Shown one piece after another: positions 12,487 to 26,065 of a stretch of 32,000 nt of DNA (position 1 is its first letter; each line of letters starts with the position of its first letter). Made by a program: the position numbers and the translations under genes. The stretch comes from Halomicrobium mukohataei DSM 12286 (GTDB lineage: Archaea; Halobacteriota; Halobacteria; Halobacteriales; Haloarculaceae). Location of the stretch: assembly GCF_000023965.1 (NCBI RefSeq), contig NC_013202.1, positions 900,001 through 932,000 of the forward strand, given 5' to 3'. The notes under the pieces are model-generated. The model was given only the letters and a program-made list of their open reading frames with translations, was not told the DNA's origin and did no database searches.

Positions 12487-12590
12487 GGGCACGTAGCTCA
12501 GTCCGGATAGAGCGTCGGACTTCTAACGCCGTCACGGCCGTGACGGTGGAAGCGATCCGACGGTCGTGGGTTCGAATCCCACCGTGCCCG
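12487..12590 (+). tRNA. tRNA-Arg (anticodon UCU) with a 29-nt intron at the canonical 37/38 position
   Basis: Folded by hand. Acceptor GGGCACG/CGTGCCC plus discriminator G. D arm GCTC-AGTCCGGATA-GAGC. Anticodon stem TCGGA/TCCGA with loop CTTCTA|A (anticodon tct at 12522-12524). T arm GTGGG-TTCGAAT-CCCAC. The intron (12526-12554) contains the hairpin ccgtcac-ggcc-gtgacgg. Confidence 0.85.
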
Positions 12591-12607
12591 TCCCGAAACC
12601 GTCGGTT
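12577..12607. repeat. attL: 31-nt direct repeat overlapping the 3' end of tRNA-Arg
   Basis: tcccaccgtgcccgtcccgaaacCgtcggtt recurs at 26066-26096 with one mismatch (C/T at 12600/26089). The first 14 nt are the tRNA 3' end. Confidence 0.85.
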
Positions 12608-12762
12608 CCGTACTTTTCCCGGATAACACGGTTATCAAGCCGTTCGTCATCCTCTCTCGACGGTTCTCGAATTCGATTTGAGAGCCAGAATTTGGTGCCC
12701 AACACAGGTGCGAACGCACCCCTCCGCCGTCTGGCATACTCTGTTACCGGGAGGTGGTCGGC

Positions 12763-12906
12763 GTGATCTCTCCCGATGGTTCTCCGTCTCGCGAGAGTTG
12801 GCCGTTCGATCCCAACGAGTTCGTCCGCGCGTCTCGCCTCCTGGAAGCGACTGACCGAGAAGTTCGCCAGGCGATCGAAGAGGTCAAGGACGGTGGTTCC
12901 CGATGA
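12763..12906 (+). CDS. Possible small ORF (47 aa, GTG start), translationally coupled to the next ORF
   Basis: Reads VISPDGSPSRESWPFDPNEFVRASRLLEATDREVRQAIEEVKDGGSR. Its stop overlaps the ATG at 12903 (ATGA). Too short for the track. The track's ORF 12776..12958 in another frame is Arg-rich and less plausible. Confidence 0.3.
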   Translation: MISPDGSPSRESWPFDPNEFVRASRLLEATDREVRQAIEEVKDGGSR

Positions 12907-13052
12907 ACGGGACCGCCTACGTCTGCGACGACTGCGGCGTCACGATCGTCGAGCGTGATCCCGACCAGACTGATCTCTGTCCAGTCTGTCGAACTGGGGG
13001 CGATCCCGAGCAGTATCCGCCGCTTAACCAGGAGCGAGGTGACTACCGATGA
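12903..13052 (+). CDS. Small zinc-ribbon protein (49 aa)
   Basis: MNGTAYVCDDCGVTIVERDPDQTDLCPVCRTGGDPEQYPPLNQERGDYR has CxxC-x16-CxxC. ATGA overlaps occur at both ends (12903-12906 and 13049-13052). Not in the track because it is under 60 aa. Confidence 0.5.
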   Translation: MNGTAYVCDDCGVTIVERDPDQTDLCPVCRTGGDPEQYPPLNQERGDYR

Positions 13053-13378
13053 CCTGCTGGTCCGAGTACGTTCACTACGACTGCGAGGACTGCGGCGAGA
13101 TCTGCATCAACCACGAGGAGAGTGATCCCGCCCAGCTGGGCAAATGTCGCGGCTGCCACATCGACGATCTCGTCGAGGACTACGAGCAGCGACTTCGTAG
13201 CCAACACTCGACGAACACCACGAGCGACCGGCCGGAGGGAGCGACCCCCTCACATGGGGGTCCGACCGACGCCGGGAGCGCACGCCCCCAAGCGAAGCGC
13301 AGGGGGCATTCGTCAGGCGGTCGCGGTCGCGGTAGCGGTCTCGTCTCCGAGGACTCTGCGAACTCTGACTCATTCTAA
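13049..13378 (+). CDS. Small zinc-ribbon protein with disordered basic/Gly-rich tail (109 aa)
   Basis: 'YDCEDCGEICINHEESDPAQLGKCRGCH' is a CxxC...CxxC motif, followed by a low-complexity tail. Coupled to the upstream ORF by an ATGA overlap. Confidence 0.55.
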   Translation: MTCWSEYVHYDCEDCGEICINHEESDPAQLGKCRGCHIDDLVEDYEQRLRSQHSTNTTSDRPEGATPSHGGPTDAGSARPQAKRRGHSSGGRGRGSGLVSEDSANSDSF

Positions 13379-13380
13379 CC

Positions 13381-15189
13381 TTGTCTACGGACGAACCCAC
13401 CACCGGCGGCTCTCGGCATACCAACTTGAACAACTCTGTAAACGACTCTGACGGGGGTAACTCACCGAAAATCGGTTCGGAGTTACCCACTCCGTACGAG
13501 CGCGTTTCAGAGTTCCACGAGGAATACTCCGACCGTGCTCACCTCCGCCTGTCGACAACCCATGGCGAACGACTCCGAGAGGAGTACACCCGAGAGTTCA
13601 CGGAGAGCTACGAATCATCCGCCCCACGAGAGTGGGACGACCCAGTGAAAGGCCAGGAGGTCGTCCGCCGGGAAGCCGTCACTTGGGGAACCGCCGTACT
13701 CCGAACGCTCGAAGACTACGCCGATACCCGCCGGACGACAGTGAATCTCGAGAAAGGTCGTCCGTCAGATCCGGAGTATCAGGAGTGGTCCGTACAGGCT
13801 GAAACGCGCTGGTTCGCCAGCTACCAGAAGCGCTACTACGCCCAGATGAAAGGCTGGCTCCGGGAACTTTGCGGTGGCAAACGACCATCCGGAGAGTACA
13901 CCGAACCCGACTTCGAGAATCCCCATGTGGCCCTCGTCACGCTATCGGCCTCGAGCGTCCCGAACGGTGATCGCGTCGGTCCGGTCGAACACGAACGGGT
14001 CCGTCGCGAGAGCTGGCAGGACGTGTATCACACTCTCCGGAACACCATGCGCTCGAAAGGCTACGAACTCGGTGACGACTGGCAGTACGACCGCCGTAGC
14101 GAGCCACACGCGGGCGAACGCGGCGGTGGCCTGAACCACTGCTATGGCCACGACCACATCGTGATCGTCGTCGACGGCGAGGTGGACGCGACAGACTTCC
14201 AGCCTGTCGTCGAAAAACACGTCGAGACGTGCGACTGGGCCGGTGAGACTGCACACGCCCTCGAGAAAGCCATCGAGGTGAAGGCCGCTGACGAGGTGGA
14301 ACACCTGGCTGAGTACTGTGCCAGCTACGCGGCCATCAAGCCCGTCGATCTCCTCGAGCGGCCGATAGAGTACGTCGCGTGGGCCAGCGCAGTCAACGCG
14401 GCCAACGTAAAGACGGTCTCACGCTCTGACGCTGCCAAACACGCCGCCACTGCTGACGCCTGCCGACAACGCGCTGAGTCCCCACAGTGCGACCAGGACC
14501 GCGATCACGCTGAAGAGATTATCCCCTCGACACGTCGTGGATATGAACTTGAGTGTGCTGAATGCGGCAGTCCCCACGGGATCGACCAGGACCAGACACT
14601 AACAGCTGCCCGATCTCCGAACGACGGCCCAGCGATCGCCGACGGCGGCCTCGTCGATCGCGTCGAACAGCTCAAGGAGCGGTGGCCGTCCGCTCGAGCA
14701 GGTGCGACAGTCGGTGAACGACCACAACGTCGACGCTGGCGACTGGCGATCGAGGAATACCTCAAACAGAACCCCGAAGCAGACCCACCCGAGATACTGG
14801 GCCAGCTGCAACTGCCACCGGACGCTCGCGAGGTCCTAGCCGAGATCGAGGCCGGGATCGATCGAAGTGTACCCGTCGGCTTCGAGCGGCCGCCCGAGTG
14901 GCAAGTCAAGTCGATCACCGTCGGTGAAGAGGAGTATCCCGCTTCCTCCGGTAACGGCGTGACGATGGTCGAGACGAAGTTGCCCGTCGAACGAGTGTAC
15001 GAAGAGTCGGTTCTATCGGAGCGCGACGACGTGACTCGCTGGCGTTGTGAGAAGACAAACGTCGCGATCGGCGGCCCTAATGCTGGTCGAAAGATGGCCG
15101 GCTATCTTGTGAAACAGGGGATCAAGCATCCATGGGTTATAGAAAGTTTAGTAGTTATTGAACACGTTCGAGGGTTAAATTCGATCTAG
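13381..15189 (+). CDS. Large provirus ORF; candidate HUH-type rolling-circle replication initiator (start codon uncertain, TTG in track)
   Basis: 602-aa open frame with acidic haloarchaeal composition. Candidate RCR motifs appear in the canonical order: I 'HVALVTLSASS', II 'HCYGHDHIVIVVD' (HxH followed by hydrophobics), III 'EYCASYAAIKP' (Tyr...K). A CxxC pair 'ECAECGSPHG' lies in the central region. A TCTCGGC motif sits at 13411, inside the 5' end. No in-frame ATG occurs until far downstream. Confidence 0.55.
   Translation: MSTDEPTTGGSRHTNLNNSVNDSDGGNSPKIGSELPTPYERVSEFHEEYSDRAHLRLSTTHGERLREEYTREFTESYESSAPREWDDPVKGQEVVRREAVTWGTAVLRTLEDYADTRRTTVNLEKGRPSDPEYQEWSVQAETRWFASYQKRYYAQMKGWLRELCGGKRPSGEYTEPDFENPHVALVTLSASSVPNGDRVGPVEHERVRRESWQDVYHTLRNTMRSKGYELGDDWQYDRRSEPHAGERGGGLNHCYGHDHIVIVVDGEVDATDFQPVVEKHVETCDWAGETAHALEKAIEVKAADEVEHLAEYCASYAAIKPVDLLERPIEYVAWASAVNAANVKTVSRSDAAKHAATADACRQRAESPQCDQDRDHAEEIIPSTRRGYELECAECGSPHGIDQDQTLTAARSPNDGPAIADGGLVDRVEQLKERWPSARAGATVGERPQRRRWRLAIEEYLKQNPEADPPEILGQLQLPPDAREVLAEIEAGIDRSVPVGFERPPEWQVKSITVGEEEYPASSGNGVTMVETKLPVERVYEESVLSERDDVTRWRCEKTNVAIGGPNAGRKMAGYLVKQGIKHPWVIESLVVIEHVRGLNSI
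13411..13513. repeat. 103-nt segment repeated beyond attR (copy 1), beginning with TCTCGGC and containing a 13-bp interrupted hairpin
   Basis: Hand alignment to 26106-26208 gives 97/103 identical. Hairpin in copy 1: ggtaactc-accga-aaa-tcggt-tcg-gagttacc (13456-13487). Confidence 0.85.
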
Positions 15190-15364
15190 AGAGGCTTCAC
15201 TCACTAGTTAAAATAGTAGTATACCTATATATAAAATATCATATATTAGTTATATATAAAACATTGTCTATTGGTTGTATTAAATATACTCATCTCGCAT
15301 ATATTATCCTGTTTCCCCATATTAATTACTTCACCATCATGTGTTCGAACTGGATAGCAATCCC

Positions 15365-16039
15365 ATGGCAACATTTGATGTAACGGTATACACGTCAAAA
15401 GAGGCGCATAGTAATGATGGGTTTGACGCCCGAGATATGGCAATAGAATTCATCGAGGGCGCATTCAACCGCTCGGATAATCACAGTGTGGACGCCACTG
15501 CTTCCGATTCTATTGTTGACGCTCCGGTTGAGTACGCAAATGATCCATTCAAGGGCCCAATGCCTTGCCATAGTTATAGAACATGGTATGATGATTTGCT
15601 ACACTGGTTCAGGGAATGGTTAGATTGTAATGAGCCATCGGAGATCGCAACAGACTGTAACCTACTGGTTACGTATGGTACCACCGGTGGACTTGGTGGA
15701 GGAGATGACGCCTATGCCTGTGTAGGAGAAAAATTGGTCCAATTCGATTCATATGAAGAATATGGATACGAAACAAAGCATGATTCAGTTGATACCCTCC
15801 TAGAAGAGCTTGGTCATGCGCTCGTATCCAATATGGAAAATGAGGATGATGATAAAGTAGCCCACGACTCTGGATATATATTCCATCATTCAGAGGGGAA
15901 TACTATAACCCCAATAGGTATTACCGGAGATACAGACTATAACAACTGCAATGTATACGTGAATAAAGACAGATGGGATGGAGAAGGTTGGGAAGCAAGG
16001 TATTCACAATGTACTGAAGATAATTTCGTGAAAAATTAA
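15365..16039 (+). CDS. Hypothetical cytoplasmic protein (224 aa) of AT-rich cargo cassette, gene 1
   Basis: ATG at 15365 (MATFDVTVY...); the track's GTG at 15341 is possible. No signal peptide. Cys/Trp/Tyr/Asn-rich, with AT-rich codon usage unlike its neighbours. Contains 'LLEELGHALV...AHDSG', which resembles a degenerate HExxH region. The stop is 1 nt before the next ATG. Confidence 0.6.
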   Translation: MATFDVTVYTSKEAHSNDGFDARDMAIEFIEGAFNRSDNHSVDATASDSIVDAPVEYANDPFKGPMPCHSYRTWYDDLLHWFREWLDCNEPSEIATDCNLLVTYGTTGGLGGGDDAYACVGEKLVQFDSYEEYGYETKHDSVDTLLEELGHALVSNMENEDDDKVAHDSGYIFHHSEGNTITPIGITGDTDYNNCNVYVNKDRWDGEGWEARYSQCTEDNFVKN

Positions 16040-16040
16040 A

Positions 16041-16505
16041 ATGAGTCAAGAGCACAACCGAAGACGGTTTATGAAGTTTGTTGGAACTGGCGCATTGTCC
16101 GCTGGCTATGTTAGTACTGGATCTGCTCAGACAGATTCAGAGAGAGATGATAATAAACAAGAGATAGGCATATACAACCATTCTGATAAAGTTGCAAATA
16201 TCGGAATAGAAATAGGAACGAGTGACAAAGTTATTTATAATAACAAGCATTCACTTCATGGGGCACGACTAGATCAGATACCAGATCATGCAGAAACAAA
16301 CAAGCGATATTCTGTTTCTGAGCAATTGTCGAACTCAGCGAGGCTTGCAACATCTGATCACGCAATAATCCGAGTGCGGAGTGATAGTGGTGAAATGGAA
16401 AAGTTGTCAGTACCAGTGGACAGTGGACAAATCTCAGAAAGAGTTTCTGTCACCGCATATATTAGCTCTGATGGAGAATTAAAGTTAGAATATAGTGTTG
16501 ATTAG
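16041..16505 (+). CDS. Tat-exported small protein (154 aa), cassette gene 2
   Basis: 'NRRRFMKFVGTGALSAGYVSTGSAQ' is a twin-arginine signal with an A-x-A-like cleavage site. The remainder looks like a small beta-rich domain. Confidence 0.65.
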   Translation: MSQEHNRRRFMKFVGTGALSAGYVSTGSAQTDSERDDNKQEIGIYNHSDKVANIGIEIGTSDKVIYNNKHSLHGARLDQIPDHAETNKRYSVSEQLSNSARLATSDHAIIRVRSDSGEMEKLSVPVDSGQISERVSVTAYISSDGELKLEYSVD

Positions 16506-16568
16506 AATAGACCATAAATAGAAGAATAGGTCCTAAAGTTTTTCTTTCTTTCGCACATCATAGCAATC

Positions 16569-17063
16569 ATGGCAAGTCGAAGACTCCTGCTTAAAAAAGT
16601 AGGGCTCCTATCCATAGTTTCTCTTTCAGGGTGTATTAATAAAATTGGAGGAAGTACAGACGGCAGAAATGTGCCAACAGTAACCCAAGATTGTGACGCT
16701 TCTGCTCGACCTGATGGGAAATATCCTAGCTTTCCTAGAGAAATAACAAGAAATAATGTAGAGGGTTTTGTATTGAAGTTTGAGAAGGCTTGGGTTCAAG
16801 CAGAGATTAATGATAGTGGAGATAACTTCTCTGGTTTTGATGGCTGGGATAGTAGTGTATATCAAGAATTGGATAACGGATTTTTTGTTACCACCCGTAT
16901 ATCTGCTGATTACTCATCTGGAAAAAACGAGGAAGGTGGAACAGATCTTGGTAGTGAAGTATTCTCTGCTTGGTACTATATCAATTCAGATTTTGCCTTT
17001 CGCTCCCAGAGGGACACCGACGAACCGCCCAACAATGGTTGGCAGACGGTCGCTTGTGCCTGA
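16569..17063 (+). CDS. Predicted lipoprotein (164 aa), cassette gene 3
   Basis: 'MASRRLLLKKVGLLSIVSLSGC' has an RR n-region, an h-region and a lipobox Cys. C-terminal 'TVACA'. AT-rich codon usage. Confidence 0.65.
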   Translation: MASRRLLLKKVGLLSIVSLSGCINKIGGSTDGRNVPTVTQDCDASARPDGKYPSFPREITRNNVEGFVLKFEKAWVQAEINDSGDNFSGFDGWDSSVYQELDNGFFVTTRISADYSSGKNEEGGTDLGSEVFSAWYYINSDFAFRSQRDTDEPPNNGWQTVACA

Positions 17064-17180
17064 TTATTCTATTTTCTGTGCGACTATACAGCCATACCCA
17101 TAACCCACTTTATAAAACTTAGCCATACTTCTATTTGTACTCAAGGGTTTTTGGGCGGATCTTGAAGATACAGTGTAGCA

Positions 17181-17507
17181 ATGCCCAGTAAACCCGACTC
17201 CTTCGACGATCTCGAACCGACCGAAACCACCACGGACGACGGCGGAACCGATCGGATCGATCTCGATCCCGGCCAAGAGGTGGTCGGCACGATCACCGGC
17301 CTGAACCTGAACGCTGGGTACAACGGTGTGGTCGAGCTGGACGGCCGCCCGATGTACCTGAACAACCAGCTCAAGAACCAGATCATCGCGGCGCTCGTCG
17401 AAGGCAGTACGATGGGCGTTCGGATGTCCGAGGACACCGAGACCTTCGAGAACGACGACGGCGAGGAACAAGAGTACCACCCCAAGGAAGCGAGGTTCGA
17501 CCGATGA
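17181..17507 (+). CDS. Provirus hypothetical protein (108 aa, acidic)
   Basis: Clean ATG ORF at the start of the high-GC structural module. Its stop overlaps the next ATG (17504). A TTTATAAA-like TATA element ('ctttataaaac', ~17109-17119) lies upstream. Confidence 0.6.
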   Translation: MPSKPDSFDDLEPTETTTDDGGTDRIDLDPGQEVVGTITGLNLNAGYNGVVELDGRPMYLNNQLKNQIIAALVEGSTMGVRMSEDTETFENDDGEEQEYHPKEARFDR

Positions 17508-17920
17508 GCAGCCAGTACAAGAACCGCGTGTCGGACATGGCGAGCGACTACATGAACATCCGGAGCCTTCCGGCGATGCTGTCGGTCGGCTTCATCCTCG
17601 CCAGTCTCTACCAGTTCGGCGGCATCTCCGACGTGACGCTCACCTGGCTCGCTGACTCTGGTGGCTACACCCTCACCAACCAGCACGCAATCATGGTATC
17701 GCTCGGAGCCTTCGCTGCGGCGTTCGCCTCCAGCGAGACCAAGCGCTTCGAACACTACGAGCGCTGGGAGCAGGTCGCGATCGCCGCCGGCCCGGGTGTG
17801 ATCCTCGGCCAGCAGTACGTCACCGAAGTGAACGACTTCCTCCTCAGTCTGGGCGACCCGCTCGGGATGCAGCTGGCGTTCGGTGCGACGATCCTCTCCT
17901 GGGGAGTCGCGGTCCAGTAG
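17504..17920 (+). CDS. Multi-pass membrane protein (pleolipovirus VP3-like internal membrane protein candidate)
   Basis: 138 aa with 3-4 hydrophobic helices (LPAMLSVGFILASLY; AIMVSLGAFAAAFA; VAIAAGPGVILG; LAFGATILSWGVAV). It sits immediately upstream of the spike-like ORF, as in pleolipovirus genomes. Confidence 0.6.
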   Translation: MSSQYKNRVSDMASDYMNIRSLPAMLSVGFILASLYQFGGISDVTLTWLADSGGYTLTNQHAIMVSLGAFAAAFASSETKRFEHYERWEQVAIAAGPGVILGQQYVTEVNDFLLSLGDPLGMQLAFGATILSWGVAVQ

Positions 17921-17924
17921 ATCC

Positions 17925-19769
17925 ATGATCGGACACAAGAACGCGCTCCGACTGCTCGTGGCGCTGCTCGTCGTCGGGTCCGTTATCCCGGCCCCGGCAG
18001 TTGCCCAGTCGGATAACGAGTATTCCCACCAGTTCACTGGTGGGCCGCAAGGGGTCGTAGTCGACCAGAGTAACATCTCTGGCGACTTCACGGTCACAGT
18101 CTCCTCGACCGAGGTGACTGGTCGGTCTGGCCAAAAGACGCTGCTCGCGCAGAAACGGCTAGGTCCCGGTACCGAGGAGAAGATCGTCTTCATGAACGAA
18201 GGTGCCTACGACAACATCACCGTCGAGGTGACGATCCACGACAGTGGTGAGCCTGAGTTCATGGCTGAGTCCGATGTTGGGATCGACGTTCCGTACATCA
18301 TCGGCCACACTGGTGGTGACGCTGATCTCCAGTGCAACAAAGACGAAAAGCTGTTCTCGATGACCAACCCGATGGTCGAGGTCGTGGACTGCACTCCGCC
18401 GGTGGATAATGGCGTTGACACCAGTCAGACTGATGCTGAACAGTTGAAGATCGATCTGTACCAGTCTGGTCAGAATGCAAAAGCCTCGAGCGACGTCTAC
18501 CAGACCACGCTCGACAACTACCTTCAGGACACCGAGACGCAGGCTCGGATCATCGGCAAGAACGCTTACGTCCGGGCGCTGAACAATGGCAGCAGCAAGG
18601 CTGCTGCCAAGACTGAGGCCAAAAACGCCGTCGCTGATTACTACTCCACTCACGAGCGGAACCTCATCGCCAAGTGGAATCTGCAGGTGTCTAACTACGA
18701 GTATAACCGCGGTGTCGCTGTGAACGAATCACTCGATCAAAACGAGGAAGCCGTCTACCAGCGAACCGCCCCGACGTACCTCAATGGTACGATGGGTGCC
18801 AACGGTGATTACGAGCAGTTCCCCTACTTCGCCAACGTTGGCAGTAATTCGCTGACGCTGTCGAATGGTACTACGGTCTCTGCGAGTACGATCGTCTTCG
18901 ATGAGGTGCAGCGAGACAGTACCGACGCCACCCACAACAACAAGGGAGAGGCTGGTACTCTGACGATGACTTCTGGTTACGTTGACTGGGAGGACTCCGT
19001 GGGCGATATCAACACTGTGTACGGTGTAACGTTCACTGGCCCCACGTCTGACTACGAAGATGTTGAGGCCATCGACTTGGCTGAGTACGAGGCCAAGTGG
19101 TCCGAAATCCAGTCCCAGAACACGCAGGTCCAGAACGACATGGACACTGTTGTCGAGAACACGTACGACGAGTACCAGTCGGGCGAGATCAACAACACCG
19201 ATCTCGTCGATCCGTACGTGCTGTCCAACGACTTCAGTGCTGGTAACGAATACCAGTCGTGGTCTGCTGCCCAGCTGACGCTGCTCGGCACCAACAGCCC
19301 CGAAGCCATGGACACGATGGGCGAGTTCAACGTCACGACCGCTGACGGCACCACGCACACTGGTGTGCTCATGTCCCAGTCGAACCCGGCGAGTGGCCAG
19401 TTCGAGGTCAACACGACCTACGACACGGCCAATATCACCGGCCCGCAATTCGTGGTCACCGCTGATCGACTCGTCGAACTCGACGGCGAGTTCACGGTCG
19501 ACTCGATCGAGACGACTGACGGCGAAAGCCGAGAGAACGTGACGATCGAGAAGACGACCTACGACACTGCGGACATCAACGTGACGCAGCTGGTCGAGTT
19601 GTACGAACAACTCAACAAGGAGCGCGCCGAGTGGGAAGCTCGCGAGCAGAACTTGCGTGGCGGCGCTGGCGGGTTCGCGTTCGGCAACAGTACGAGTCTC
19701 GGGATCATCGCCGCCCTCGCTGGCGGGATGCTACTCCTTCGAAACCGCGACGACGGAGGTCGGTACTGA
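17925..19769 (+). CDS. Spike/fusion-like envelope glycoprotein (pleolipovirus VP4-like candidate)
   Basis: Start placed at MIGHKNALRLLVALLVVGSVIPAPAVAQS (signal peptide). C-terminal TM anchor 'LGIIAALAGGMLLL' followed by 'RNRDDGGRY'. About 13 N-x-S/T sequons (NIS, NIT, NGS, NES, NGT x2, NNT, NVT x3, NTT, NIT, NST). 614 aa. Confidence 0.7.
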   Translation: MIGHKNALRLLVALLVVGSVIPAPAVAQSDNEYSHQFTGGPQGVVVDQSNISGDFTVTVSSTEVTGRSGQKTLLAQKRLGPGTEEKIVFMNEGAYDNITVEVTIHDSGEPEFMAESDVGIDVPYIIGHTGGDADLQCNKDEKLFSMTNPMVEVVDCTPPVDNGVDTSQTDAEQLKIDLYQSGQNAKASSDVYQTTLDNYLQDTETQARIIGKNAYVRALNNGSSKAAAKTEAKNAVADYYSTHERNLIAKWNLQVSNYEYNRGVAVNESLDQNEEAVYQRTAPTYLNGTMGANGDYEQFPYFANVGSNSLTLSNGTTVSASTIVFDEVQRDSTDATHNNKGEAGTLTMTSGYVDWEDSVGDINTVYGVTFTGPTSDYEDVEAIDLAEYEAKWSEIQSQNTQVQNDMDTVVENTYDEYQSGEINNTDLVDPYVLSNDFSAGNEYQSWSAAQLTLLGTNSPEAMDTMGEFNVTTADGTTHTGVLMSQSNPASGQFEVNTTYDTANITGPQFVVTADRLVELDGEFTVDSIETTDGESRENVTIEKTTYDTADINVTQLVELYEQLNKERAEWEAREQNLRGGAGGFAFGNSTSLGIIAALAGGMLLLRNRDDGGRY

Positions 19770-19957
19770 TGGTCTACTGGCTGGTGCTGAAAGCGATCCC
19801 GATGAAACCCGTCTCCGCGATCGCACTGCTCGGGTTCGGCCTCGAGGCGATGGGCGTCCCCGTGATCGGCCCAGCCGTAGATCTCGTTTCGCCACTCGTC
19901 GACGATGCGATCGGCTGGATAGAGTCACAACTAACTGCCTCGTGGCAGTTCTGGTAA
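19769..19957 (+). CDS. Small membrane protein (62 aa)
   Basis: MVYWLVLKAIPMKPVSAIALLGFGLEAMGVPVIG... The ATG overlaps the spike stop (TGATG at 19767-19771). Internal start within track ORF 19631..19957. Confidence 0.5.
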   Translation: MVYWLVLKAIPMKPVSAIALLGFGLEAMGVPVIGPAVDLVSPLVDDAIGWIESQLTASWQFW

Positions 19958-19983
19958 CACCATTCCCCTACCCGGTTTCAGAC

Positions 19984-20541
19984 ATGAATCACAACGTCGT
20001 TAGCATCGCGTTCGTCCTGCTCGTCTGTAGTACAGTCCTAGCTGGCGTCTCGATCGGTCAACAGACCGCCGGCAACACAGCAACTCCAGCGGATCCGTCA
20101 GGTCCTGATGGCGGTCCCTCGAACTACGAACTCGTGATCGACGAGAACGTCGGTGTCGTCGACTACAGCGTCGAGGACGGCGTGTTCGTCATCGAGTTCT
20201 ATTCGGACGAGTTCAAATCCGTCACCCTCTCCGCAGCTCCGGATACAAGCAGTCAGTCCGGCTCGATCTCGTTCCGGTCCGTCGTCGTCGAGGCCGATAC
20301 CAGGACGACCGTGCGTATTACTGCCTCGTCCGCCGTCTCGATGTGGACTGACGACAGTCTCGAACGAGAGCAAGCGTACTACATCCGCAAGCAGTCGGGC
20401 TTCATCGTCGACGGCCCGTGGACCGCTTCGGACGTTCGTGACGCCGCACTCGGCGGCGCTCTCGGCGTCGTGGTCGCCGTCCTGTACGAAGCAGTCGCCG
20501 CCAAGGTCGGTACGACCGAACGAGGTGAGCGCGTCGCATGA
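19984..20541 (+). CDS. Secreted/membrane-anchored provirus protein (185 aa)
   Basis: Internal ATG of track ORF 19657..20541: 'MNHNVVSIAFVLLVCSTVLAGVSIGQQ' is a signal peptide. A C-terminal hydrophobic segment is 'AALGGALGVVVAVLYEAVAA'. ATGA overlap with the next ORF. Confidence 0.6.
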   Translation: MNHNVVSIAFVLLVCSTVLAGVSIGQQTAGNTATPADPSGPDGGPSNYELVIDENVGVVDYSVEDGVFVIEFYSDEFKSVTLSAAPDTSSQSGSISFRSVVVEADTRTTVRITASSAVSMWTDDSLEREQAYYIRKQSGFIVDGPWTASDVRDAALGGALGVVVAVLYEAVAAKVGTTERGERVA

Positions 20542-21353
20542 GCGACCCTGAAGCCGGACAGGAACAGCCCGCCGAACTGGACCAGGAGCCGAGTCGATCC
20601 CGGTGGTTCCGTGCGTTCCGATGGCTGACCGAGAACCTGACGCTTCTGGCGTCGGGTGTCGGTCTCGGCCTGTTCATTCTCGCGTCGGTCATCGGCTACG
20701 AACTCCCGCGCAATCTCAAGATCATCGGCCTCACAGCTATCATCATCGTCCCGATCGTCGGGCGACCGACCGGCAAGAAGGTCCGGTCGCTGTTGTGGGA
20801 ACCGACGTACGTCTGGCTCGTCGACGTCGACGCTCGCTACACCAAGGGCGGCATCTTCCGCGTTCCTGGCCAGCGATTTAGCGAGTGGACGATCACCGAG
20901 GGCCAACTCGACTGGGTGAGTCCCGATCTCGCCTTTGGAAAGCAGGTCGATCTCGACGAGCAGACCGTCGAGGGCACCTGGCGCGGTACCATGTCCGACC
21001 GAGAGCTGATGAAAACGCTCCAGGCCGTCGAGGAGTGTCGCGGCCAACTCGAAGAGGACGCGAAGCGTGGCTTCGCCATCGAAGCCCAGGCGTTCACGAT
21101 CATCCGCAATGCCACCCGGAAGGCCGTGCTGCGGATCGTCTCGATGTTCGAACGTGGGACCCTTCCAGACGAAGGAGAGGGGTTGACCGACGAGATCGAC
21201 AACGCGATCGAGCAGTTCGGTCTCGAGCGGAAGATTCGCGAGACTGAAGAGGACTCGCAGGAGTCCGAAACCCCTGGCGTTCGTATCGACTTCGACCAAG
21301 ACCTTGCTGATCTCGCCGGAGCTGGGAACGGAGGTGCGCCCGCCGATGACTGA
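20538..21353 (+). CDS. Provirus membrane protein (271 aa, two N-terminal TM helices)
   Basis: TM helices 'NLTLLASGVGLGLFILASVIGY' and 'IIGLTAIIIVPIVG', followed by a soluble acidic domain. Coupled on both sides. This position corresponds to the conserved ORF upstream of the NTPase in pleolipoviruses. Confidence 0.6.
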   Translation: MSDPEAGQEQPAELDQEPSRSRWFRAFRWLTENLTLLASGVGLGLFILASVIGYELPRNLKIIGLTAIIIVPIVGRPTGKKVRSLLWEPTYVWLVDVDARYTKGGIFRVPGQRFSEWTITEGQLDWVSPDLAFGKQVDLDEQTVEGTWRGTMSDRELMKTLQAVEECRGQLEEDAKRGFAIEAQAFTIIRNATRKAVLRIVSMFERGTLPDEGEGLTDEIDNAIEQFGLERKIRETEEDSQESETPGVRIDFDQDLADLAGAGNGGAPADD

Positions 21354-22251
21354 TGGCGTCGACGAACACTTGCTCACTGCGGCGAAGCTCTACGAGCAGG
21401 TCCGTGGCGATCTCGACGGCGACGATCGTCTCCTTCCGCATACCGGGATCGTCGACGATACCCAGGACCGAGCGGCGCTGTCGTTCCTCGAGACTGCGTT
21501 CCGAGAAGCCGACGAACTTCCCACTTCGTCAAGGACGTTCGAAGGTACGTCGCTCGGCCAAGTGCTTGCCTCGAAGCAAATCACCGGGACTGCAACCGAA
21601 GCCGTCGCCCAGGGCAACGGCTCGATCATGTCCCACATCGTCGGCGTCACCGAACAGGATCTCGATGCCTCCGCGCTACGGCTCCCTATGATGCTGCTCG
21701 AGGAAATAGAGAACAACGGCGCTCCGGCGTTCATCACTGCTGCCGGGAACCCGAACACCGGCAAAACGAACACGGCGATCCTGCTAATTCAGCTGCGTGC
21801 GCTCGATCGCGACGATCTCCTCGTACTGTCGAATGTTCGCACCTGGAATGAGACAGATATCGTCGTCACGTCGGCCCACGATCTCGCCGTGCAACTCCTC
21901 GAGCATCGCGACCGACCGAAAGCAATCCTGATCGACGAAGGATCGACCCACTTCGATGCTCGGACGAACCGGCGAGAAGTGGCCGAGCAGTACACTCCGC
22001 TGGCGAAGCGGTACGCAAAGCTCAACGTCGACCTAGAGGCTGTCGTCGTCCATACCGGTAAGGACCTTCATCCAGAGCGTAAGCGACTCTCCACGCTGGC
22101 AATATACAAGACTTCGAAGAAATCTGCTAATTTCTTCGAACACTGGCCTGCTGATGCCGACACACCCACAGATCAGTTGTTTGGTGGGAGTCTAGAGGAA
22201 ATCGAAAAAGCCACCGGCTACGATCCCGATGACGCGGCTCCTTGGACCTAG
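21346..22251 (+). CDS. P-loop NTPase (pleolipovirus VP8-like candidate)
   Basis: Walker A 'AAGNPNTGKTN' and Walker B 'AILIDEGS'. Start placed at MTDGVDEHLL (ATG at 21346), overlapping the previous ORF by 8 nt. Confidence 0.7.
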   Translation: MTDGVDEHLLTAAKLYEQVRGDLDGDDRLLPHTGIVDDTQDRAALSFLETAFREADELPTSSRTFEGTSLGQVLASKQITGTATEAVAQGNGSIMSHIVGVTEQDLDASALRLPMMLLEEIENNGAPAFITAAGNPNTGKTNTAILLIQLRALDRDDLLVLSNVRTWNETDIVVTSAHDLAVQLLEHRDRPKAILIDEGSTHFDARTNRREVAEQYTPLAKRYAKLNVDLEAVVVHTGKDLHPERKRLSTLAIYKTSKKSANFFEHWPADADTPTDQLFGGSLEEIEKATGYDPDDAAPWT

Positions 22252-22400
22252 AATCTTCAAGCTGGGCTTTTCGAAAAGGATATCGATTGGTCTGAATTAC
22301 TCAGTAAGTTAAAAGAAGGCGGGCCTGAATATAGGAATGAGTAAAATACCAACCTGCTTTAGCGGTGATAGATATAAATATGAATCTTGTTAAACATTAG

Positions 22401-23246
22401 ATGGGGATGAAGAATCAACTATCCGAATGGTATGATCCATCAGCAAATCCAGTTTACCAGACTATTACTAAAATCCGGTTTCCTCGGCAACAGGGACACG
22501 CTACTGGGTTTTTTTATAATAGTGATGATAAAACATATCTAGTGACTAACAGACACGTGGTTTCACCTGACGATGATGAGGTACAAGATCCAGATTCTAT
22601 TCGAATATTTACACGTCCTGTTGACTCCTTAGGAGATCGAGAATATCACGATATCTCACTAAATGAAGGGGAAGGAAAGAGTTGGTTCACGCATCCAATT
22701 CACGATGCAGACATAGCTGTACTGCCTCTAGATTTTGAATTAGATTGTGTCAATCATAGGATTGGAATTGATGAAGAGCGTCCCGTTGAAACCGGAAGTC
22801 TGGCCTACAACGAGGATTCGATTCTTTCAGAAAAAGATAGGGTTCTCCCAGGTAATAGAGCACAAGTAGTCGGTTATCCAGGAGACTATGTAGATCAACA
22901 ATATGGGTTCCCTGTGACAAGAAACGCCGTCGTTTCTACTCAATACGGTTTTCCGTTCGATGGGAATCCTATTTTTTTAACTGATGCCCGGATGCATCCT
23001 GGAACAAGTGGAAGCCCTGTGGTGGCTGGCCCGGAAACTCTCATTATACATGGTGGTCTTGATCTTTGGGGACCAGCGTATAAATTGCTCGGAGTGCATT
23101 CTGCTACCTTACAACAATCTACAGTCGATAAAGATGATGAGAGGATGTTAGAATTAAATACCACCTGGTATGCAGAACTGATAGAAGAGATTCTATTCTT
23201 AAAAGATACAGATATTGAAGAACTAGATGATCAAGAAAATAATTGA
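22401..23246 (+). CDS. Cytoplasmic trypsin/chymotrypsin-fold serine protease (S1-like, Trypsin_2-type)
   Basis: Catalytic triad in canonical order and context: 'YLVTNRHVV' (His52), 'HDADIAVLPL' (Asp104), 'HPGTSGSPVV' (Ser203). No signal peptide and no PDZ domain. AT-rich codon usage. A TATA-like 'gatagatataaatatg' ends ~20 nt before the ATG, suggesting a leaderless mRNA. Confidence 0.8.
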   Translation: MGMKNQLSEWYDPSANPVYQTITKIRFPRQQGHATGFFYNSDDKTYLVTNRHVVSPDDDEVQDPDSIRIFTRPVDSLGDREYHDISLNEGEGKSWFTHPIHDADIAVLPLDFELDCVNHRIGIDEERPVETGSLAYNEDSILSEKDRVLPGNRAQVVGYPGDYVDQQYGFPVTRNAVVSTQYGFPFDGNPIFLTDARMHPGTSGSPVVAGPETLIIHGGLDLWGPAYKLLGVHSATLQQSTVDKDDERMLELNTTWYAELIEEILFLKDTDIEELDDQENN

Positions 23247-23259
23247 ATATTATCCCCGC

Positions 23260-23265
23260 TTTTTT
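23260..23265 (+). terminator. Oligo-T tract (T6) downstream of the protease gene
   Basis: 'ccccgcTTTTTTgtgg' lies 14 nt after the stop. Archaeal terminators are typically oligo-T runs. Confidence 0.4.
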
Positions 23266-23341
23266 GTGGCCCAGATTAGTTTCACTTTCACTCCGGCGTT
23301 GGCCCTCACTTTTACCACTCCATATCCTTGGTCCATATCCG

Positions 23342-23506
23342 ATGTCCCTGAATGAATGGCTATGTTGCCCCGCTGGGTGTGATGCGACGATCGAGGCGGT
23401 TACGCTCCCCGGCAGTCGGATCGGACTCCAGTGTGTGGCGTGCGGACGCAAAATCGAAGAACCAGTGGAACAGGTCGAAGAGAATTATCGGACGATAGAG
23501 GTCTAA
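23342..23506 (+). CDS. Small zinc-ribbon protein (54 aa)
   Basis: Internal ATG of track ORF 23243..23506: MSLNEWLCCPAGCDATIEAVTLPGSRIGLQCVACGRKIEEPVEQVEENYRTIEV (CxxxC...CxxC). The stop overlaps the stop of the convergent nuclease-like gene. Confidence 0.45.
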   Translation: MSLNEWLCCPAGCDATIEAVTLPGSRIGLQCVACGRKIEEPVEQVEENYRTIEV

Positions 23507-24525
23507 TCCTCGCCGTGCTCCTCGAGCGTGGTGAACTCCAACTCGTCAGGTGAGTACTGATACTGTTTCAGGTCTTCGTCGTCACAGTGATCAGAAAGAT
23601 TGGCCGGTGCAACTTCCTCTCCGGTCGGACCTTCGTAGACGACGCTCACTTCGTCGCCGTCGATCCCGACAACCACCGCGGGGTTCGGGTCGTCGTGTGA
23701 CGACTTGACGACGTAATCACCGACAGTGTACGGATTCTCTGCGAAATTCAGGTTCTCGTGCTTGTACGTGTAGAGGCTAACGTCCTGGTCGTCGCAGTAC
23801 GAGGACAACAGTGCTGGCTCGATGTCTCGCCAATCGCCCGGTCCCTCGTCGAGCGAGCTGGGGAAGGCTACCCGGACAGCTTCGCCGTCCATTTTCTGCC
23901 CGAATAGTTCGATCTGTGTCTCCGGCGGTAGCACCTCGACGACGACCCCGACCGATGCATCTTCGTCCTCCCGCTTCTCGACACGATCGCCCGGCTGAAA
24001 CGGATTCTCCGGTTTCTGGTTCATGTTCGCCGTGTTCGGCCCCAGGTCCTGGAGGTCGTTCATCGGCCGAGCAGCGAGGTGGTCGAGCTTCGCTGGCGTG
24101 TCGCCCGAGAACTGTTCCTCAGTCTCGACTTTCGACTCGAGCGTGGCGACGTGCTCCCAGCCGAGCAGAATCAGGCTATCCTCGTTGTCCCGGTGCCAGA
24201 CCATGACGATGATGTCGTCAGCTGAATCCATCTCGATCAGATTCTTCGGGAGAAACGCCGACACGTCGCGAGAGGTCTTCACGTCGACTTCGTAGTCGAA
24301 TACCTCGAAATCGTGTCCTGCGAAACTCTCCGCGTTACATCGTCTGATCGCATCCTCGTTCTGCCACTCCCACATCTCTGCTGGCAGGTACTCGCGACAA
24401 AACTGCTCGAACGCGATCTCCCCGAGGTTCCCGATCCGCTTCGCATCGATATTGTCTGCATCCTGAATGACAGCCTGGTGATTGGCTCGACTGCTATCGA
24501 TTTCGTCCGGAGTAAACTGATACAC
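23503..24525 (-). CDS. PD-(D/E)xK-like nuclease N-domain fused to two tandem copies of a ~70-90 aa C-terminal domain
   Basis: N-terminus: 'GNLGEIAFEQF', 'AGHDFEVFDYEVDVKTS' (D...E-x-D-x-K) and 'IIVMVW' fit a restriction-endonuclease-like core. C-terminus: residues 174-263 and 264-332 align (NPFQPGDRVEK...VVV...SSYCDDQDVSLYTYKHENLNF versus NPYTVGDYVVK...VVV...SDHCDDEDLKQYQYSPDELEF). Confidence 0.6.
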   Translation of the reverse strand: MYQFTPDEIDSSRANHQAVIQDADNIDAKRIGNLGEIAFEQFCREYLPAEMWEWQNEDAIRRCNAESFAGHDFEVFDYEVDVKTSRDVSAFLPKNLIEMDSADDIIVMVWHRDNEDSLILLGWEHVATLESKVETEEQFSGDTPAKLDHLAARPMNDLQDLGPNTANMNQKPENPFQPGDRVEKREDEDASVGVVVEVLPPETQIELFGQKMDGEAVRVAFPSSLDEGPGDWRDIEPALLSSYCDDQDVSLYTYKHENLNFAENPYTVGDYVVKSSHDDPNPAVVVGIDGDEVSVVYEGPTGEEVAPANLSDHCDDEDLKQYQYSPDELEFTTLEEHGED

Positions 24526-24641
24526 ACTGATACCATTTTATTTAACCACTATGAGTTTTCGTGTACCAGAAAGCACTCAGGAATTTCAACGACTCAACCC
24601 ACCCACCGACCCACCCCCAAGTGGGTACTGGAAAATACCGT

Positions 24642-24857
24642 TTATTCCTCGTCGACGGCTTGCCGAACGGCCTCGACGACGAACTCCCGCCGTTCCTCGT
24701 CAGTCATCTCTTCGTCCAGCTCGTCGATCTCCTCCAGGACTTCGAGCTTCATCTTGATCGCGTCCCTGACCCAGCCAGATCGAGAATCACCGTAGGAGAG
24801 TGTACTATCGAGTTCGTCGAGTAGCTCCTGCTCCATATTGAAACTCGGCTGTACCAT
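24642..24857 (-). CDS. Ribbon-helix-helix (CopG/Arc-like) DNA-binding protein
   Basis: Start placed at MVQPSFNMEQELLDELDSTL...SRSGWVRDAIKMKLEV. This gives a beta-strand plus two helices in the RHH pattern, with an acidic tail. Divergent from the integrase gene. Confidence 0.7.
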   Translation of the reverse strand: MVQPSFNMEQELLDELDSTLSYGDSRSGWVRDAIKMKLEVLEEIDELDEEMTDEERREFVVEAVRQAVDEE

Positions 24858-24858
24858 C

Positions 24859-24958
24859 TTGCTAACGTAGTGGATAGCCAATTGCTTAATTCCTGACTTG
24901 CCCAGTTGCTAACTTGCTTAGTTGCCAAAAGCTTATTACCAAGTAGCTAAATTAGCAA
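24859..24958. promoter_or_regulatory. Array of TTGCTAA/TTGCTTA heptamers between the RHH gene and the integrase gene (putative operator or arm-type sites)
   Basis: Read directly: ttgctaa 24859, ttgctta 24882, ttgctaa 24906, ttgctta 24914, ttgccaa 24922, tagctaa 24944, and inverted ttagcaa 24952. 'agttgctaa' (24904-24912) and 'ttagcaact' (24952-24960) form an inverted pair. Confidence 0.5.
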
Positions 24959-24963
24959 CTCAT

Positions 24964-26019
24964 ATGCCCGACCCGGATCTCGAACCCATCTCGCCGGTCG
25001 AAGCCGTTGAGATGTACCACGATGCGATGGTCGACGAACTGGCGGAGTCGACCAGGAAGAGCAACAAACACCGGCTTCGTGCCTTCATCCAGTTCTGCGA
25101 CGAAGAGGAGATCGAGAACCTGAACGATCTCACCGGGCGCGATCTCTACAAATATCGGATCTGGCGGCGAGAGGGCAACGGCGACGGTCGAGAGCCTATC
25201 AAGAAGGTCACCCTGAAAGGACAACTCGCCACGCTTCGGAGTTTCCTCAAGTTCGCTGGCGAGATTGATTCCGTGAAGCCAGATCTCTACGAACAGTTGT
25301 CGCTCCCGGCGATGAAAGGCGGTGAAGACGTATCGGAATCGACCCTCGACCCCGAACGAGCGCTCGATATTCTGGAGTATCTCGAGAAGTCCCAGCCCGG
25401 AAGCCGCGACCACATCATCATCGCCCTGCTCTGGGAAACGGGTGGCCGAACGGGCGCAATCCGTGGCCTCGACCTACAGGATCTCGATCTCGATGGCGAC
25501 CATCCCCGATTCTCCGGCCCGGCAGTTCACTTCGTCCACCGACCGGAAACCGGTACTCCACTCAAGAACCAGAAAAGCGGCACTCGCTGGAACCGGATCA
25601 GTGAGAAGACGGCTGCGTTCATCGAGGACTACATCGAGTTCCACCGTCCCGACGTGACGGACGATCACGGCCGGGACCCTCTGCTGACCAGCGAGTACGG
25701 TCGTGTCGCCGGGAACACCTACCGGAGAACACTCTATCGGGTCACTCGCCCGTGCTGGCGCGGCGAGGAATGTCCCCACGATCGAGATCTCGACGAGTGC
25801 GAGGCAACGCATCTCGATCACGCGAGCAAGTGTCCGTCAGCTCGGTCACCCCACGACGTTCGGAGTGGCCGGGTCACCTACTACCGTCGAGAAGACGTCC
25901 CCCGGAAGATCGTCCAGGAGCGACTGAACGCGAGCGAGGACATTCTCGACCGACACTACGACCGTCGATCGAACCGCGAACAGGCCGAACAGCGCAGCGA
26001 CTTCCTCCCGGACGTGTGA
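24964..26019 (+). CDS. int: Tyrosine recombinase / phage-type integrase
   Basis: N-terminal SAM-like core-binding domain. Catalytic residues sit in typical contexts: 'GGRTGAIRGLDL' (Arg), 'SPHDVRSGRVTY' (HxxR), 'ILDRHYDRR' (Tyr). Start placed at ATG 24964 (MPDPDLEPISPVEAV); the track's 24922 is a TTG. The gene ends 46 nt before attR. Confidence 0.85.
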   Translation: MPDPDLEPISPVEAVEMYHDAMVDELAESTRKSNKHRLRAFIQFCDEEEIENLNDLTGRDLYKYRIWRREGNGDGREPIKKVTLKGQLATLRSFLKFAGEIDSVKPDLYEQLSLPAMKGGEDVSESTLDPERALDILEYLEKSQPGSRDHIIIALLWETGGRTGAIRGLDLQDLDLDGDHPRFSGPAVHFVHRPETGTPLKNQKSGTRWNRISEKTAAFIEDYIEFHRPDVTDDHGRDPLLTSEYGRVAGNTYRRTLYRVTRPCWRGEECPHDRDLDECEATHLDHASKCPSARSPHDVRSGRVTYYRREDVPRKIVQERLNASEDILDRHYDRRSNREQAEQRSDFLPDV

Positions 26020-26065
26020 TACCCATGTTACTACAATCCACATCGCGAACTGTCGGAAAGCAGGT

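Follow-up and report, generated by a model that had tools for sequence, protein, structure and literature searches.

What is a compact block of AT-rich DNA with three genes doing between the replication gene and the structural genes of a haloarchaeal provirus? The block lies in Halomicrobium mukohataei DSM 12286 (assembly GCF_000023965.1), within a stretch of 32,000 nucleotides (nt) of contig NC_013202.1 (positions 900,001 to 932,000), which we call the window and within which all coordinates are counted. A sequence-only reading of the window had described a discrete cargo cassette coding for a cytoplasmic protein, a protein secreted by way of twin-arginine translocation (Tat) and a lipoprotein; it had recognised none of the three and had considered superinfection exclusion among their possible roles. 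We find that the trio recurs outside viral settings, and that its first gene, g1, codes for a metzincin-like protein whose immediate neighbour, the product of g2, carries a Tat signal. To the full reading that we favour, we give about an even chance: the block would be a horizontally mobile, persistently AT-rich three-gene module (g1, g2 and the lipoprotein gene g3) that a pleolipovirus provirus took up as cargo, and the g1 protein would be co-exported on g2.

An AT-rich cassette of three intact genes

The block is made up of five consecutive segments.

15190..15364, + strand: AT-rich leader with a 25-nt imperfect tandem repeat at 15226-15275 and TATA-like tracts
15365..16039, + strand: g1, 224 amino acids (aa) from ATG, member of a metzincin-like metallopeptidase family
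16041..16505, + strand: g2, 154 aa, with Tat signal NRRRFMKFVGTGALSAG and a mature domain of ~125 aa
16569..17063, + strand: g3, 164 aa, predicted Tat-type lipoprotein (SRRLLLKK…LSGC)
17064..17180, + strand: AT-rich trailer, AT-rich to ~17140, with T-tracts and a TTTATAAA box 5' of the ORF2-like gene

Base composition clearly sets this block apart. When computed over 400-nt windows, GC content is 0.60-0.64 until position 14999, 0.39-0.46 over 15000-17199 and 0.61-0.65 beyond 17200, with the edges marked by a drop from ~0.63 to ~0.39 at 15190 and a recovery near 17140; the remainder of the 32-kb window lies at 0.51-0.69, barring a second AT-rich dip at ~22000-23300. The contrast extends to third codon positions, at which GC content (GC3) is 0.38, 0.30 and 0.32 for g1, g2 and g3, compared to 0.68 for the provirus replication gene (Rep) and 0.75 for its spike gene. 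The longest open frame in the block spans 237 codons, against a mean of 93 and a maximum of 164 across 500 shuffles of the segment. Both the GC profile and the map of open reading frames (ORFs) agree with the earlier description of an AT-rich block with three same-strand ORFs, the first two separated by 1 nt between the g1 stop and the g2 ATG, and matches in PHROG and Pfam on both sides place it, as described, between Rep and the structural module. A T-rich tract separates g2 from g3. For g1, the mechanical ORF begins at a GTG at 15341, while the ATG at 15365 (MATFD) agrees with the N-termini of homologues and with the database gene call. All three proteins are acidic (isoelectric points: g1, 4.2; mature g2, 5.0; mature g3, 4.3), which indicates adaptation to a halophilic, salt-in cytoplasm in spite of AT-rich codons.

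The leader is a putative promoter region for g1, and the two units of its tandem repeat (TATATATAAAATATCATATATTAGT and TATATATAAAACATTGTCTATTGGT, 80% identical) may represent a promoter or regulator site. On the other side, the trailer forms the right edge of the insert and likely contains a promoter of the structural module. A transposon bounded by terminal inverted or direct repeats was also considered and was rejected, the flanks yielding just short repeats at chance level.

The trio recurs as a unit in non-viral contexts

We surveyed the gene neighbourhoods of 12 proteins of the g1 family (loci and family proteins are hereafter given with the prefixes L and P, respectively). Close homologues of g1 share 36-66% identity, and across the homologues of all three genes (24-66% identity), gene order, signals and motifs are retained. 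All three genes are on the same strand in the window, in L001-L003 (a trio of 225, 161 and 172 aa followed by a 668-aa DDE transposase), in L004 (244, 149 and 190 aa) and in L015, where the N-terminus of g2 is frameshifted. In L016 and L022, g3 is found on the strand opposite to g1 and g2, and further g1-g2 pairs occur in L010, L011, L013/14 and L017. Altogether, a g3-type lipoprotein adjoins g1-g2 in six independent arrangements. The sequence-only reading, which would have been given up had the three genes not co-occurred elsewhere, is upheld on this point.

The association between g1 and g2 is tighter still. A g2 protein with a twin-arginine (RR) signal is encoded directly 3' of g1 in L001-3, L004/5, L010, L011, L013/14, L016 and L017, and a signal-less g1 is paired with an RR-signal g2 at all eight independent loci with a clearly readable downstream gene. 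This includes L011 and L013/14, in which g1 is only ~26% identical and an RR-signal protein of 148-175 aa follows within 3-9 nt, and L018 (Halobiforma nitratireducens) has a truncated downstream ORF that starts RIDRRTVL. The g1-g2 spacing ranges from -4 to +25 nt at every locus, which suggests translational coupling.

Outside the window, the neighbours of the cassette include a transposase, TrmB and AMP-binding genes, and an ABC permease, with pleolipovirus genes at none of these loci. No match was obtained for g1, g2 or g3 when each was compared by tblastn to 50,697 phage records, and pattern scans of IMG/VR found no cassette relatives. Similarly, g1 and a Tat-type relative had no match in 72,556 plasmids, and pattern scans of 185,579 GTDB species genomes aimed at the clade of this g1, characterized by an EExxH motif (see below), returned nothing; the GTDB, IMG/VR and JGI metagenome pattern scans together contributed one extra locus, L010. 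Searches of Pfam, NCBIfam, PHROG and PADLOC gave no usable match for g1-g3 save sub-threshold Tat-signal matches of g2, and the PADLOC defence models in particular matched none of the three at E-values (E) up to 0.1. Taken together, the non-viral neighbours and the lack of relatives in phage records and IMG/VR indicate a module that is mobile and not viral in essence, and that is usually found away from recognisable viruses.

Two details of L001-L003 are of note in this context. Their DDE transposase has normal GC content and lies ~280 nt 3' of g3 (2588-4594 in L001, 2434-4440 in L002 and 2449-4455 in L003), and all three contigs stop 430-580 nt 5' of g1. These shared stops hint at a repeat or mobile-element boundary upstream of g1.

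g1 is predicted to adopt a metzincin-like fold

The trio is not an orphan, contrary to the first impression of unrecognised genes: g1 belongs to an uncharacterised family, defined here as clusters at 50% identity, for which an exhaustive profile search gave 195 representatives (E≤1e-3), or 134 when E≤1e-10 is required. An AlphaFold2 (AF2) model of g1 built from 10 sequences reached a predicted template modelling score (pTM) of 0.76 and a mean predicted local distance difference test score (pLDDT) of 69.5; residues 1-130 are well modelled, the C-terminal third poorly so. Compared to the Protein Data Bank (PDB) with Foldseek, the top 50 matches of this model were all adamalysin-type metzincin catalytic domains or snake-venom metalloproteinases (E of 3e-4 to 2e-2, template modelling (TM) scores of 0.33-0.48), the best with a probability of 0.97-1.0 and TM scores of 0.41-0.48; named matches are TACE/ADAM17, adamalysin II, BmooMP-I, ADAM33, ADAM22 and ADAMTS-4. 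In a viral structure library, the best matches were metalloproteases too, none of them significant. We thus predict for g1, with moderate confidence, the metzincin/M12B catalytic-domain fold, which is characterized by a five-stranded sheet, an active-site helix and a lower subdomain.

Residue conservation points in the same direction. The consensus of an 84-member family alignment reads T-x-L-H-E-x-G-H-x-L … D-x-D-x-D-G … H-D-x-G, which corresponds in this g1 to E147-E148-L-G-H151 … H167-D168. All of the 84 members share H151 and ≥90% share E148 and H167; D168 is invariant in closer alignments of 10 and 21 members. The first motif position is variable (H in 51, E in 27 and Q in 6 of the 84), with the catalytic Glu and the second His kept, and EExxH is uniform in the clade of this g1. 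This H/E/Q swap at the first zinc-ligand position is an unusual lineage-wide substitution for a zincin, and may reflect a different metal or coordination. Retention of the catalytic Glu and of the other ligands argues against a decayed, pseudogene-like protein. Four cysteines (C68, C88, C195 and C216) are also conserved in ≥90% of the 84 members; the count of 6 Cys and 5 Trp in the 224 aa of g1 bears out its description as Cys/Trp-rich. As to the Met-turn that metzincins have beneath the zinc site, M157 is invariant in the close clade but stands ahead of the HD pair, not after it, in a part of the model with pLDDT <50.

Sequence profiles give partial links to the same families: 2-3 of the 84 relatives reach Reprolysin_3/4/5 (Pfam) at 1e-6 to 1e-7, and the g1 family profile aligns to ADAMTS-5 with HExxH in register (E of 0.026), while a PDB sequence-profile search for g1 with a small alignment returned nothing significant. 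On the basis of this model and these motifs, g1 is a metzincin-like (adamalysin/ADAM-like) protein of the zinc-protease type that lacks several formal features of membership and may be active. The 'EELGH…HD' patch noted earlier as metalloprotease-like is consistent with both the family HExxH…HD consensus and the ADAM/adamalysin fold match. The structure and profile comparisons suggested at that time were informative for g1, which gave the ADAM-type fold, and returned nothing significant for g2 (Foldseek and profile) or g3 (profile). Membership of g1 in the archaemetzincins (Peptidase_M54) was considered and set aside, with no such match in Pfam scans or among the listed fold matches; P0134 (2,999 aa, matching in 14 short stretches) was likewise discarded from the family, as it looks like a spurious repeat match.

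One Tat signal per g1-g2 pair

The g2 protein begins with a Tat signal in which the N-R-R-R-F-M-K motif is followed by FVGTGALSAGYVSTGSA and by Q as the first mature residue, i.e., with cleavage between GSA and QT. Against TIGR01409 this signal scored 16.0 bits, just below the cutoff of 16.7, and RR is kept in all seven g2 homologues with an intact N-terminus. The earlier assignment of g2 as a Tat-signal protein thus stands, with RR motif, hydrophobic region and cleavage site all present. The mature domain is predicted to be all-beta, with 8 strands in a single-sequence AF2 model, and has no match in Pfam or, by profile search, in the PDB. Foldseek matches of this model to the DnaK substrate-binding domain and to lipocalins were uninformative (E >0.1) and were not used.

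Several relatives of g1 carry an export signal of their own. An RR (Tat) signal of the haloarchaeal type is found in 12 of ~160 family representatives; in P0054 and P0077, such a signal is joined to the catalytic domain and to PPC/PKD domains, a standard secreted-protease architecture. None of the long relatives amounts to a 'Rosetta-stone' fusion of g1 with g2, as P0054, P0077 and P0157 run into PPC/PKD domains or a membrane segment instead. In L022, the signal appears to have changed partner: g1 carries its own Tat signal, KRRRLLQLAFASG, and the next ORF, which overlaps g1 by 4 nt, codes for 103 aa that begin directly in mature-domain sequence, with no upstream extension possible. This ORF aligns to columns 45-157 of the g2 profile, i.e., to the mature part only (hhalign E of 7e-5), and scores 23.1 bits with hmmsearch against a maximum of 15.8 in 2000 shuffles. 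L023 encodes a g1 with its own signal and no g2 ORF downstream.

From these sequences, each g1-g2 pair has one Tat signal, which can sit on either partner. One signal per pair, together with a spacing of -4 to +25 nt, is the pattern expected of a complex exported as a unit. Contrary to the earlier proposal, the g1 protein is probably not resident in the cytoplasm, given the relatives with their own Tat signals and secreted-protease domains and the swap of the signal between g1 and g2 in L022.

A Tat lipoprotein as frequent third component

In g3, a twin-arginine motif precedes a lipobox (S-R-R-L-L-L-K-K…S-L-S-G-C22), and R4, R5, G21, C22, C42 and C163 are invariant in 6 homologues. Tat lipoproteins are recognised by an RR motif and by a signal that ends in a lipobox, [LVI][ASTVI][GAS]C (PMC12462473, PMC2945643), and g3 is by this sequence signature a Tat-type lipoprotein with predicted lipidation. 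The lipobox had been correctly seen in the sequence-only reading; the twin-arginine motif is to be added to it. Pfam and PDB profile searches gave no match for g3 and, within them, no similarity to a known inhibitor or immunity protein.

Linkage of g3 to g1-g2 is frequent but not obligatory, which fits a surface anchor or receptor as well as a self-protection protein. In the related genome L009 (region 1693-2566), a g3 homologue of 179 aa (BLASTP identity 45%, GC 0.56) stands alone, with no g1, g2 or provirus; the host flank is 84% identical to window positions 10954-12591, and the gene sits 226 nt from the same tRNA gene at which the provirus is integrated in the window, past a 14-nt duplicate resembling an attachment (att) site at 1895-1908. 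This lone gene fits the anchor/receptor and immunity readings alike, and we conclude that g3 may be an anchor, a receptor or an immunity partner. In L022, the g3-like lipoprotein (552-1337, - strand) is longer, at 261 aa, and its N-terminal half alone aligns with g3 (hhalign probability 90%, E of 2e-6).

A proposed export mechanism and its weak points

Haloarchaea send almost their entire secretome, lipoproteins included, through the Tat pathway (PMC6525301, PMC2945643), and Tat-based export would therefore be natural for this cassette. In the mechanism that we propose, g1 would fold and acquire its metal in the cytoplasm and bind the co-translated g2 protein, after which the Tat translocon would export the g1:g2 complex on the twin-arginine signal of g2 by 'hitchhiking'. 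We further speculate that g2 could keep the protease latent until export by masking its active site, in place of the propeptide that is absent from g1. On the outer face of the membrane, g3 would act as a third partner for anchoring, as receptor or in self-protection, and the outcome of these steps would be protein cleavage on the cell surface or outside the cell. The g1:g2 complex, its co-export, its catalytic activity and its biological target are what we infer from conserved gene arrangement and motifs, and the most likely role is a generic, unspecific surface or extracellular proteolysis.

Stated in general terms, this would amount to a two-component mode of archaeal protease export, in which a metal-loaded metzincin without signal or propeptide is carried through Tat by a small beta-protein escort, possibly one that keeps it latent, with the signal on either partner, a Tat lipoprotein for anchoring or immunity, and the whole encoded by an AT-rich mobile module found across chromosomes, transposon neighbourhoods and a virus. 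We put this broader generalisation forward tentatively, as a possibility that we hold with less than even confidence.

A number of observations weigh against these proposals. The g1 motif is EExxH and not HExxH, and H167-D168 lies 16 residues past H151, behind an acidic DxDxDG-like loop, a spacing that departs from the HExxHxxGxxH of metzincins, so that g1 could instead be a pseudo-enzyme or the user of another metal. Furthermore, g1 itself matches no Pfam family at E up to 1, and confidence in its fold is held at moderate because the C-terminal half of the model, motif region included, has a pLDDT of ~45-60. The g2 model has a pLDDT of 51 and no fold match, and the alignments available for g2 and g3 are shallow. 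Finally, a single clear locus, L022, documents the signal swap, together with L023 as a negative case, and g3 is missing from L013 and L017 and so not obligatory.

AT-richness persists across divergent loci

The cassette is AT-rich relative to its surroundings at 6 of the 7 loci with usable flanks, as follows.

Window: cassette GC 0.42, flank GC 0.61
L001: cassette GC 0.41, flank GC 0.59
L004: cassette GC 0.49, flank GC 0.56
L011: cassette GC 0.42, flank GC 0.69
L013: cassette GC 0.49, flank GC 0.60
L017: cassette GC 0.49, flank GC 0.59
L016 (the exception, with flanks low too): cassette GC 0.42, flank GC 0.47

Little contrast is seen with the short flanks of L018 (0.47 vs 0.49) and L022 (0.42 vs 0.44). 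Since the contrast is also present in very divergent members, a single recent transfer from a low-GC source is not a sufficient explanation, and the AT-richness of the module may point to a pool of mobile low-GC genes that hypersaline communities share.

The cassette occupies a flexible site of a pleolipovirus provirus

The provirus that hosts the cassette has the following main features.

12487-12590: tRNA gene with intron, the attachment site, its 3' end overlapping attL
12577..26096: whole provirus, ~13.5 kb, bounded by attL (12577-12607) and attR (26066-26096), a 31-nt direct repeat that is 96.8% identical
13381..15189, + strand: pleolipovirus rolling-circle Rep, left border of the cassette (phrog_10542 at 2.9e-261; PF07232, DUF1424, at 3.9e-15)
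17181..19769, + strand: structural module, with an ORF2-like gene at 17181-17507 (phrog_6009), VP3 at 17504-17920 (phrog_5900) and the spike VP4 within 17883-19769 (phrog_2231)
24922-26019: tyrosine integrase, within the provirus, near attR

Two small CxxC-type ORFs lie between attL and Rep, and after the spike gene come, in this order, additional conserved ORFs, a gene resembling ATPases, the second AT-rich island and the tyrosine integrase. An identical contig carries the Pfam marks PF26064 (VP3) and PF26255 (Viral_env_HRPV). Rep is 31-32% identical to the Rep of Humcor2 and HHPV-1/2, and the core of Rep, ORF2, VP3, spike and ATPase, in conserved order, is collinear with HHPV-1 and Humcor2 (alphapleolipovirus type). 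A provirus of 13,533 bp and subgroup I has been reported as 'Halomicrobium mukohataei region 2' (PMC3384331, Table 3), with which the size and type found here agree. A megablast search of the provirus against the phage records returned no match. The tRNA was the sole match of an Rfam scan (62 bits), and ARAGORN gave no anticodon for it.

The junction between Rep and ORF2 measures 83 nt in HHPV-1 and holds two accessory genes, unrelated to the cassette, in the temperate Humcor2. From these two relatives, the cassette can be understood as cargo at a known flexible site, and the discrete AT-rich cargo insertion originally described is confirmed.

Alternative readings

The module could alternatively serve competition, with exported g1, alone or with g2, acting as a diffusible or contact weapon against other haloarchaea (e.g., by degrading the S-layer or envelope), g3 providing immunity, and the genes spreading in the way of bacteriocin or halocin loci. 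This reading concerns role and is compatible with the g1:g2 export mechanism; we nonetheless regard it as unlikely. The lone g3 homologue at the same tRNA hot spot in L009 resembles orphan immunity genes, the cassette is found in mobile contexts (a provirus, beside a DDE transposase, at contig ends) and its distribution is patchy, as seen from the empty EExxH-clade scans of the 185,579 species genomes. A halocin-C8-like gene a few kb away in the window (see below) would also indicate that the region collects cargo of this kind. However, g3 is unlike known inhibitor or immunity proteins in the Pfam and PDB profile searches, and L013 and L017 hold g1 and g2 without the supposed immunity gene.

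Lysogenic conversion specific to the virus, in which the products at the surface would hide or cut the receptor of pleolipoviruses, or alter the envelope, so as to block superinfection or aid budding, appears quite unlikely. The location of the cassette is what such a role would lead one to expect, i.e., inside an apparently intact provirus and at the junction that holds accessory genes in related temperate pleolipoviruses, and two or three of its products are predicted to reach the surface. The second AT-rich island, with a candidate of the PDC-S45 defence type, likewise suggests that this virus carries cargo of benefit to its host. Yet the other loci have no adjoining pleolipovirus genes, and relatives are absent from the 50,697 phage records and the IMG/VR scans; with non-viral loci and no viral relatives, the function of the module would be independent of the virus. 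Superinfection exclusion as a dedicated role, among the suggestions of the earlier note, is possible but not favoured in light of these non-viral contexts.

It is also conceivable, though very unlikely in our judgment, that g1 stays in the cytoplasm as a protease or an inactive pseudo-protease, with g2 and g3 being independent surface proteins that share its operon. The g1 of the window lacks a signal peptide, part of the family departs from His at the first zinc ligand (27 of 84 members with E, 6 with Q), and cytoplasmic archaeal metzincins do exist in the form of archaemetzincins. This would however leave unexplained the adjacency of g1 and g2, which is strictly kept across very divergent pairs (g1 at 26% identity), the signal swap in L022 and the Tat-signal/PPC/PKD architectures of relatives. 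The catalytic Glu, H151 and H167 are kept even in members of the E/Q type, and the fold matches are of the ADAM type, with no Peptidase_M54 in the Pfam scans or listed fold matches.

Lastly, that the block is functionless junk recently acquired from a low-GC donor is barely credible: the strong compositional contrast and the T-rich tract between g2 and g3 would fit it, but three frames are intact and far beyond chance length, homologues at 24-66% identity keep order, signals and motifs, low GC recurs at 6 of 7 loci with usable flanks, very distant members included (0.41-0.49 vs 0.56-0.69), and the proteins are acidic and halophile-adapted.

Comparison with known systems

Each element of the cassette is of a known kind, be it the metzincin fold, the Tat signals, the lipobox or its place as provirus cargo. 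The adamalysin/reprolysin-ADAM metzincins (MEROPS M12B; Reprolysin_3/4/5) resemble g1 in predicted fold, in the active-site helix (the family LHExGHxL being in register with HEIGH of ADAMTS-5), and in the downstream His/Asp and conserved Cys pairs. Beyond the altered motif (EExxH with HD 16 residues past H151, vs HExxHxxGxxH), g1 differs in having no prodomain, disintegrin domain or signal peptide, and in being archaeal, halophilic and accompanied by an obligate partner encoded in trans.

The closest parallel in organisation is a Streptomyces tyrosinase pair, in which the signal-less MelC2 is secreted by hitchhiking on the Tat-signal protein MelC1, while in a paralogous pair MelD1 has no Tat motif and MelD2 remains intracellular (PMC2758597). 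As with g1-g2, MelC1/MelC2 is a tight bicistronic pair of a signal-less metalloenzyme and a small Tat-signal protein, and the MelD helper without a Tat motif parallels the g1/g2 signal swap in L022. The two systems share no sequence or detectable fold relation, and differ in gene order (helper upstream of the enzyme for MelC, g2 downstream of g1 in the cassette), in chemistry (copper oxidase vs protease-like zincin) and in the lipoprotein gene that the cassette adds; for g1-g2, complex formation and co-export are proposals.

A second parallel is offered by serralysin-inhibitor pairs (AprA/AprI, PrtA/Inh) and TIMP-type systems, in which a metzincin without a signal is encoded beside its inhibitor, a small all-beta protein that carries a signal peptide and binds the protease outside the cytoplasm. 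Like these inhibitors, g2 is small, predicted to be all-beta and exported, and encoded beside a metzincin-like protein. No homology between them and g2 was detected, and the type I export of serralysins has no counterpart here. A role of g2 as protease inhibitor is speculative; masking of the active site would parallel these inhibitors or the MelC1 caddie.

Halolysins, serine proteases of the subtilisin type, each have a signal and a propeptide, whereas g1 is a zincin with neither. The cassette shares with these haloarchaeal Tat proteases and with Tat lipoproteins the same route and signal grammar, i.e., an RR motif and, for lipoproteins, a lipobox after the RR signal (PMC6525301, PMC2945643), and the layout of P0054 and P0077 (Tat signal, catalytic domain, PPC/PKD) is typical of secreted archaeal proteases. 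Compared to the moron-like cargo of temperate alphapleolipoviruses, the cassette shares the Rep-ORF2 site of the Humcor2 extras as well as an integrase and a tRNA att site, but its genes are unrelated to those of Humcor2, and none was found in the phage and virus records searched.

The combination of a signal-less metzincin-like enzyme, an obligate Tat partner, a swappable signal, a lipoprotein gene and persistent AT-richness appears to be undescribed, and a literature search on haloarchaeal metzincins and on putative locus tags of the trio found nothing. To our knowledge, Tat hitchhiking has so far been seen for redox enzymes and the Streptomyces tyrosinase. If g1 does leave the cell on the signal of g2, the hitchhiker principle would also apply to a hydrolase and in Archaea, and we know of no earlier description of either a hitchhiker-exported protease or an archaeal Tat hitchhiker pair. 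This would also explain how an active protease without a propeptide can be folded in the cytoplasm. More broadly, these results provide function-level leads for three unannotated protein families, with ~195 clusters for g1, and suggest, as far as predicted function goes, that the lysogenic cargo of a minimal haloarchaeal membrane virus can include an enzyme module active at the surface.

Other cargo in and next to the provirus

The second AT-rich island (~22000-23300; GC 0.41, GC3 0.29) contains an ORF at 22401-23246 (+ strand) whose product is a trypsin-like peptidase without a signal (Pfam Trypsin_2 at 1e-13, phrog_7688 at 1e-81). Among the PADLOC models, it matches that of PDC-S45, a candidate defence gene, at 1e-25 and those of LmuA and RT-protease more weakly, and it also matches a hypothetical protein of Shigella phage SfII. 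Each of the two AT-rich cargo islands of this provirus thus holds a gene of a peptidase family.

Just outside attR, the region at 26627-27577 (- strand, GC 0.51-0.54) codes for a 316-aa protein with a Tat-like signal (RRKVL) and a C-terminal stretch of ~75 residues that is hydrophobic and very rich in Cys. It has a sub-threshold match (E of 0.0015) to the Halocin 8-like N-terminal domain PF22862, and from these sequence features looks like a halocin C8-type precursor. Directly past attR, positions 26106-26208 reproduce, at 94% identity, 103 nt from the 5' end of Rep (13411-13513), and are probably what is left of another, related element that had inserted in tandem at this tRNA.

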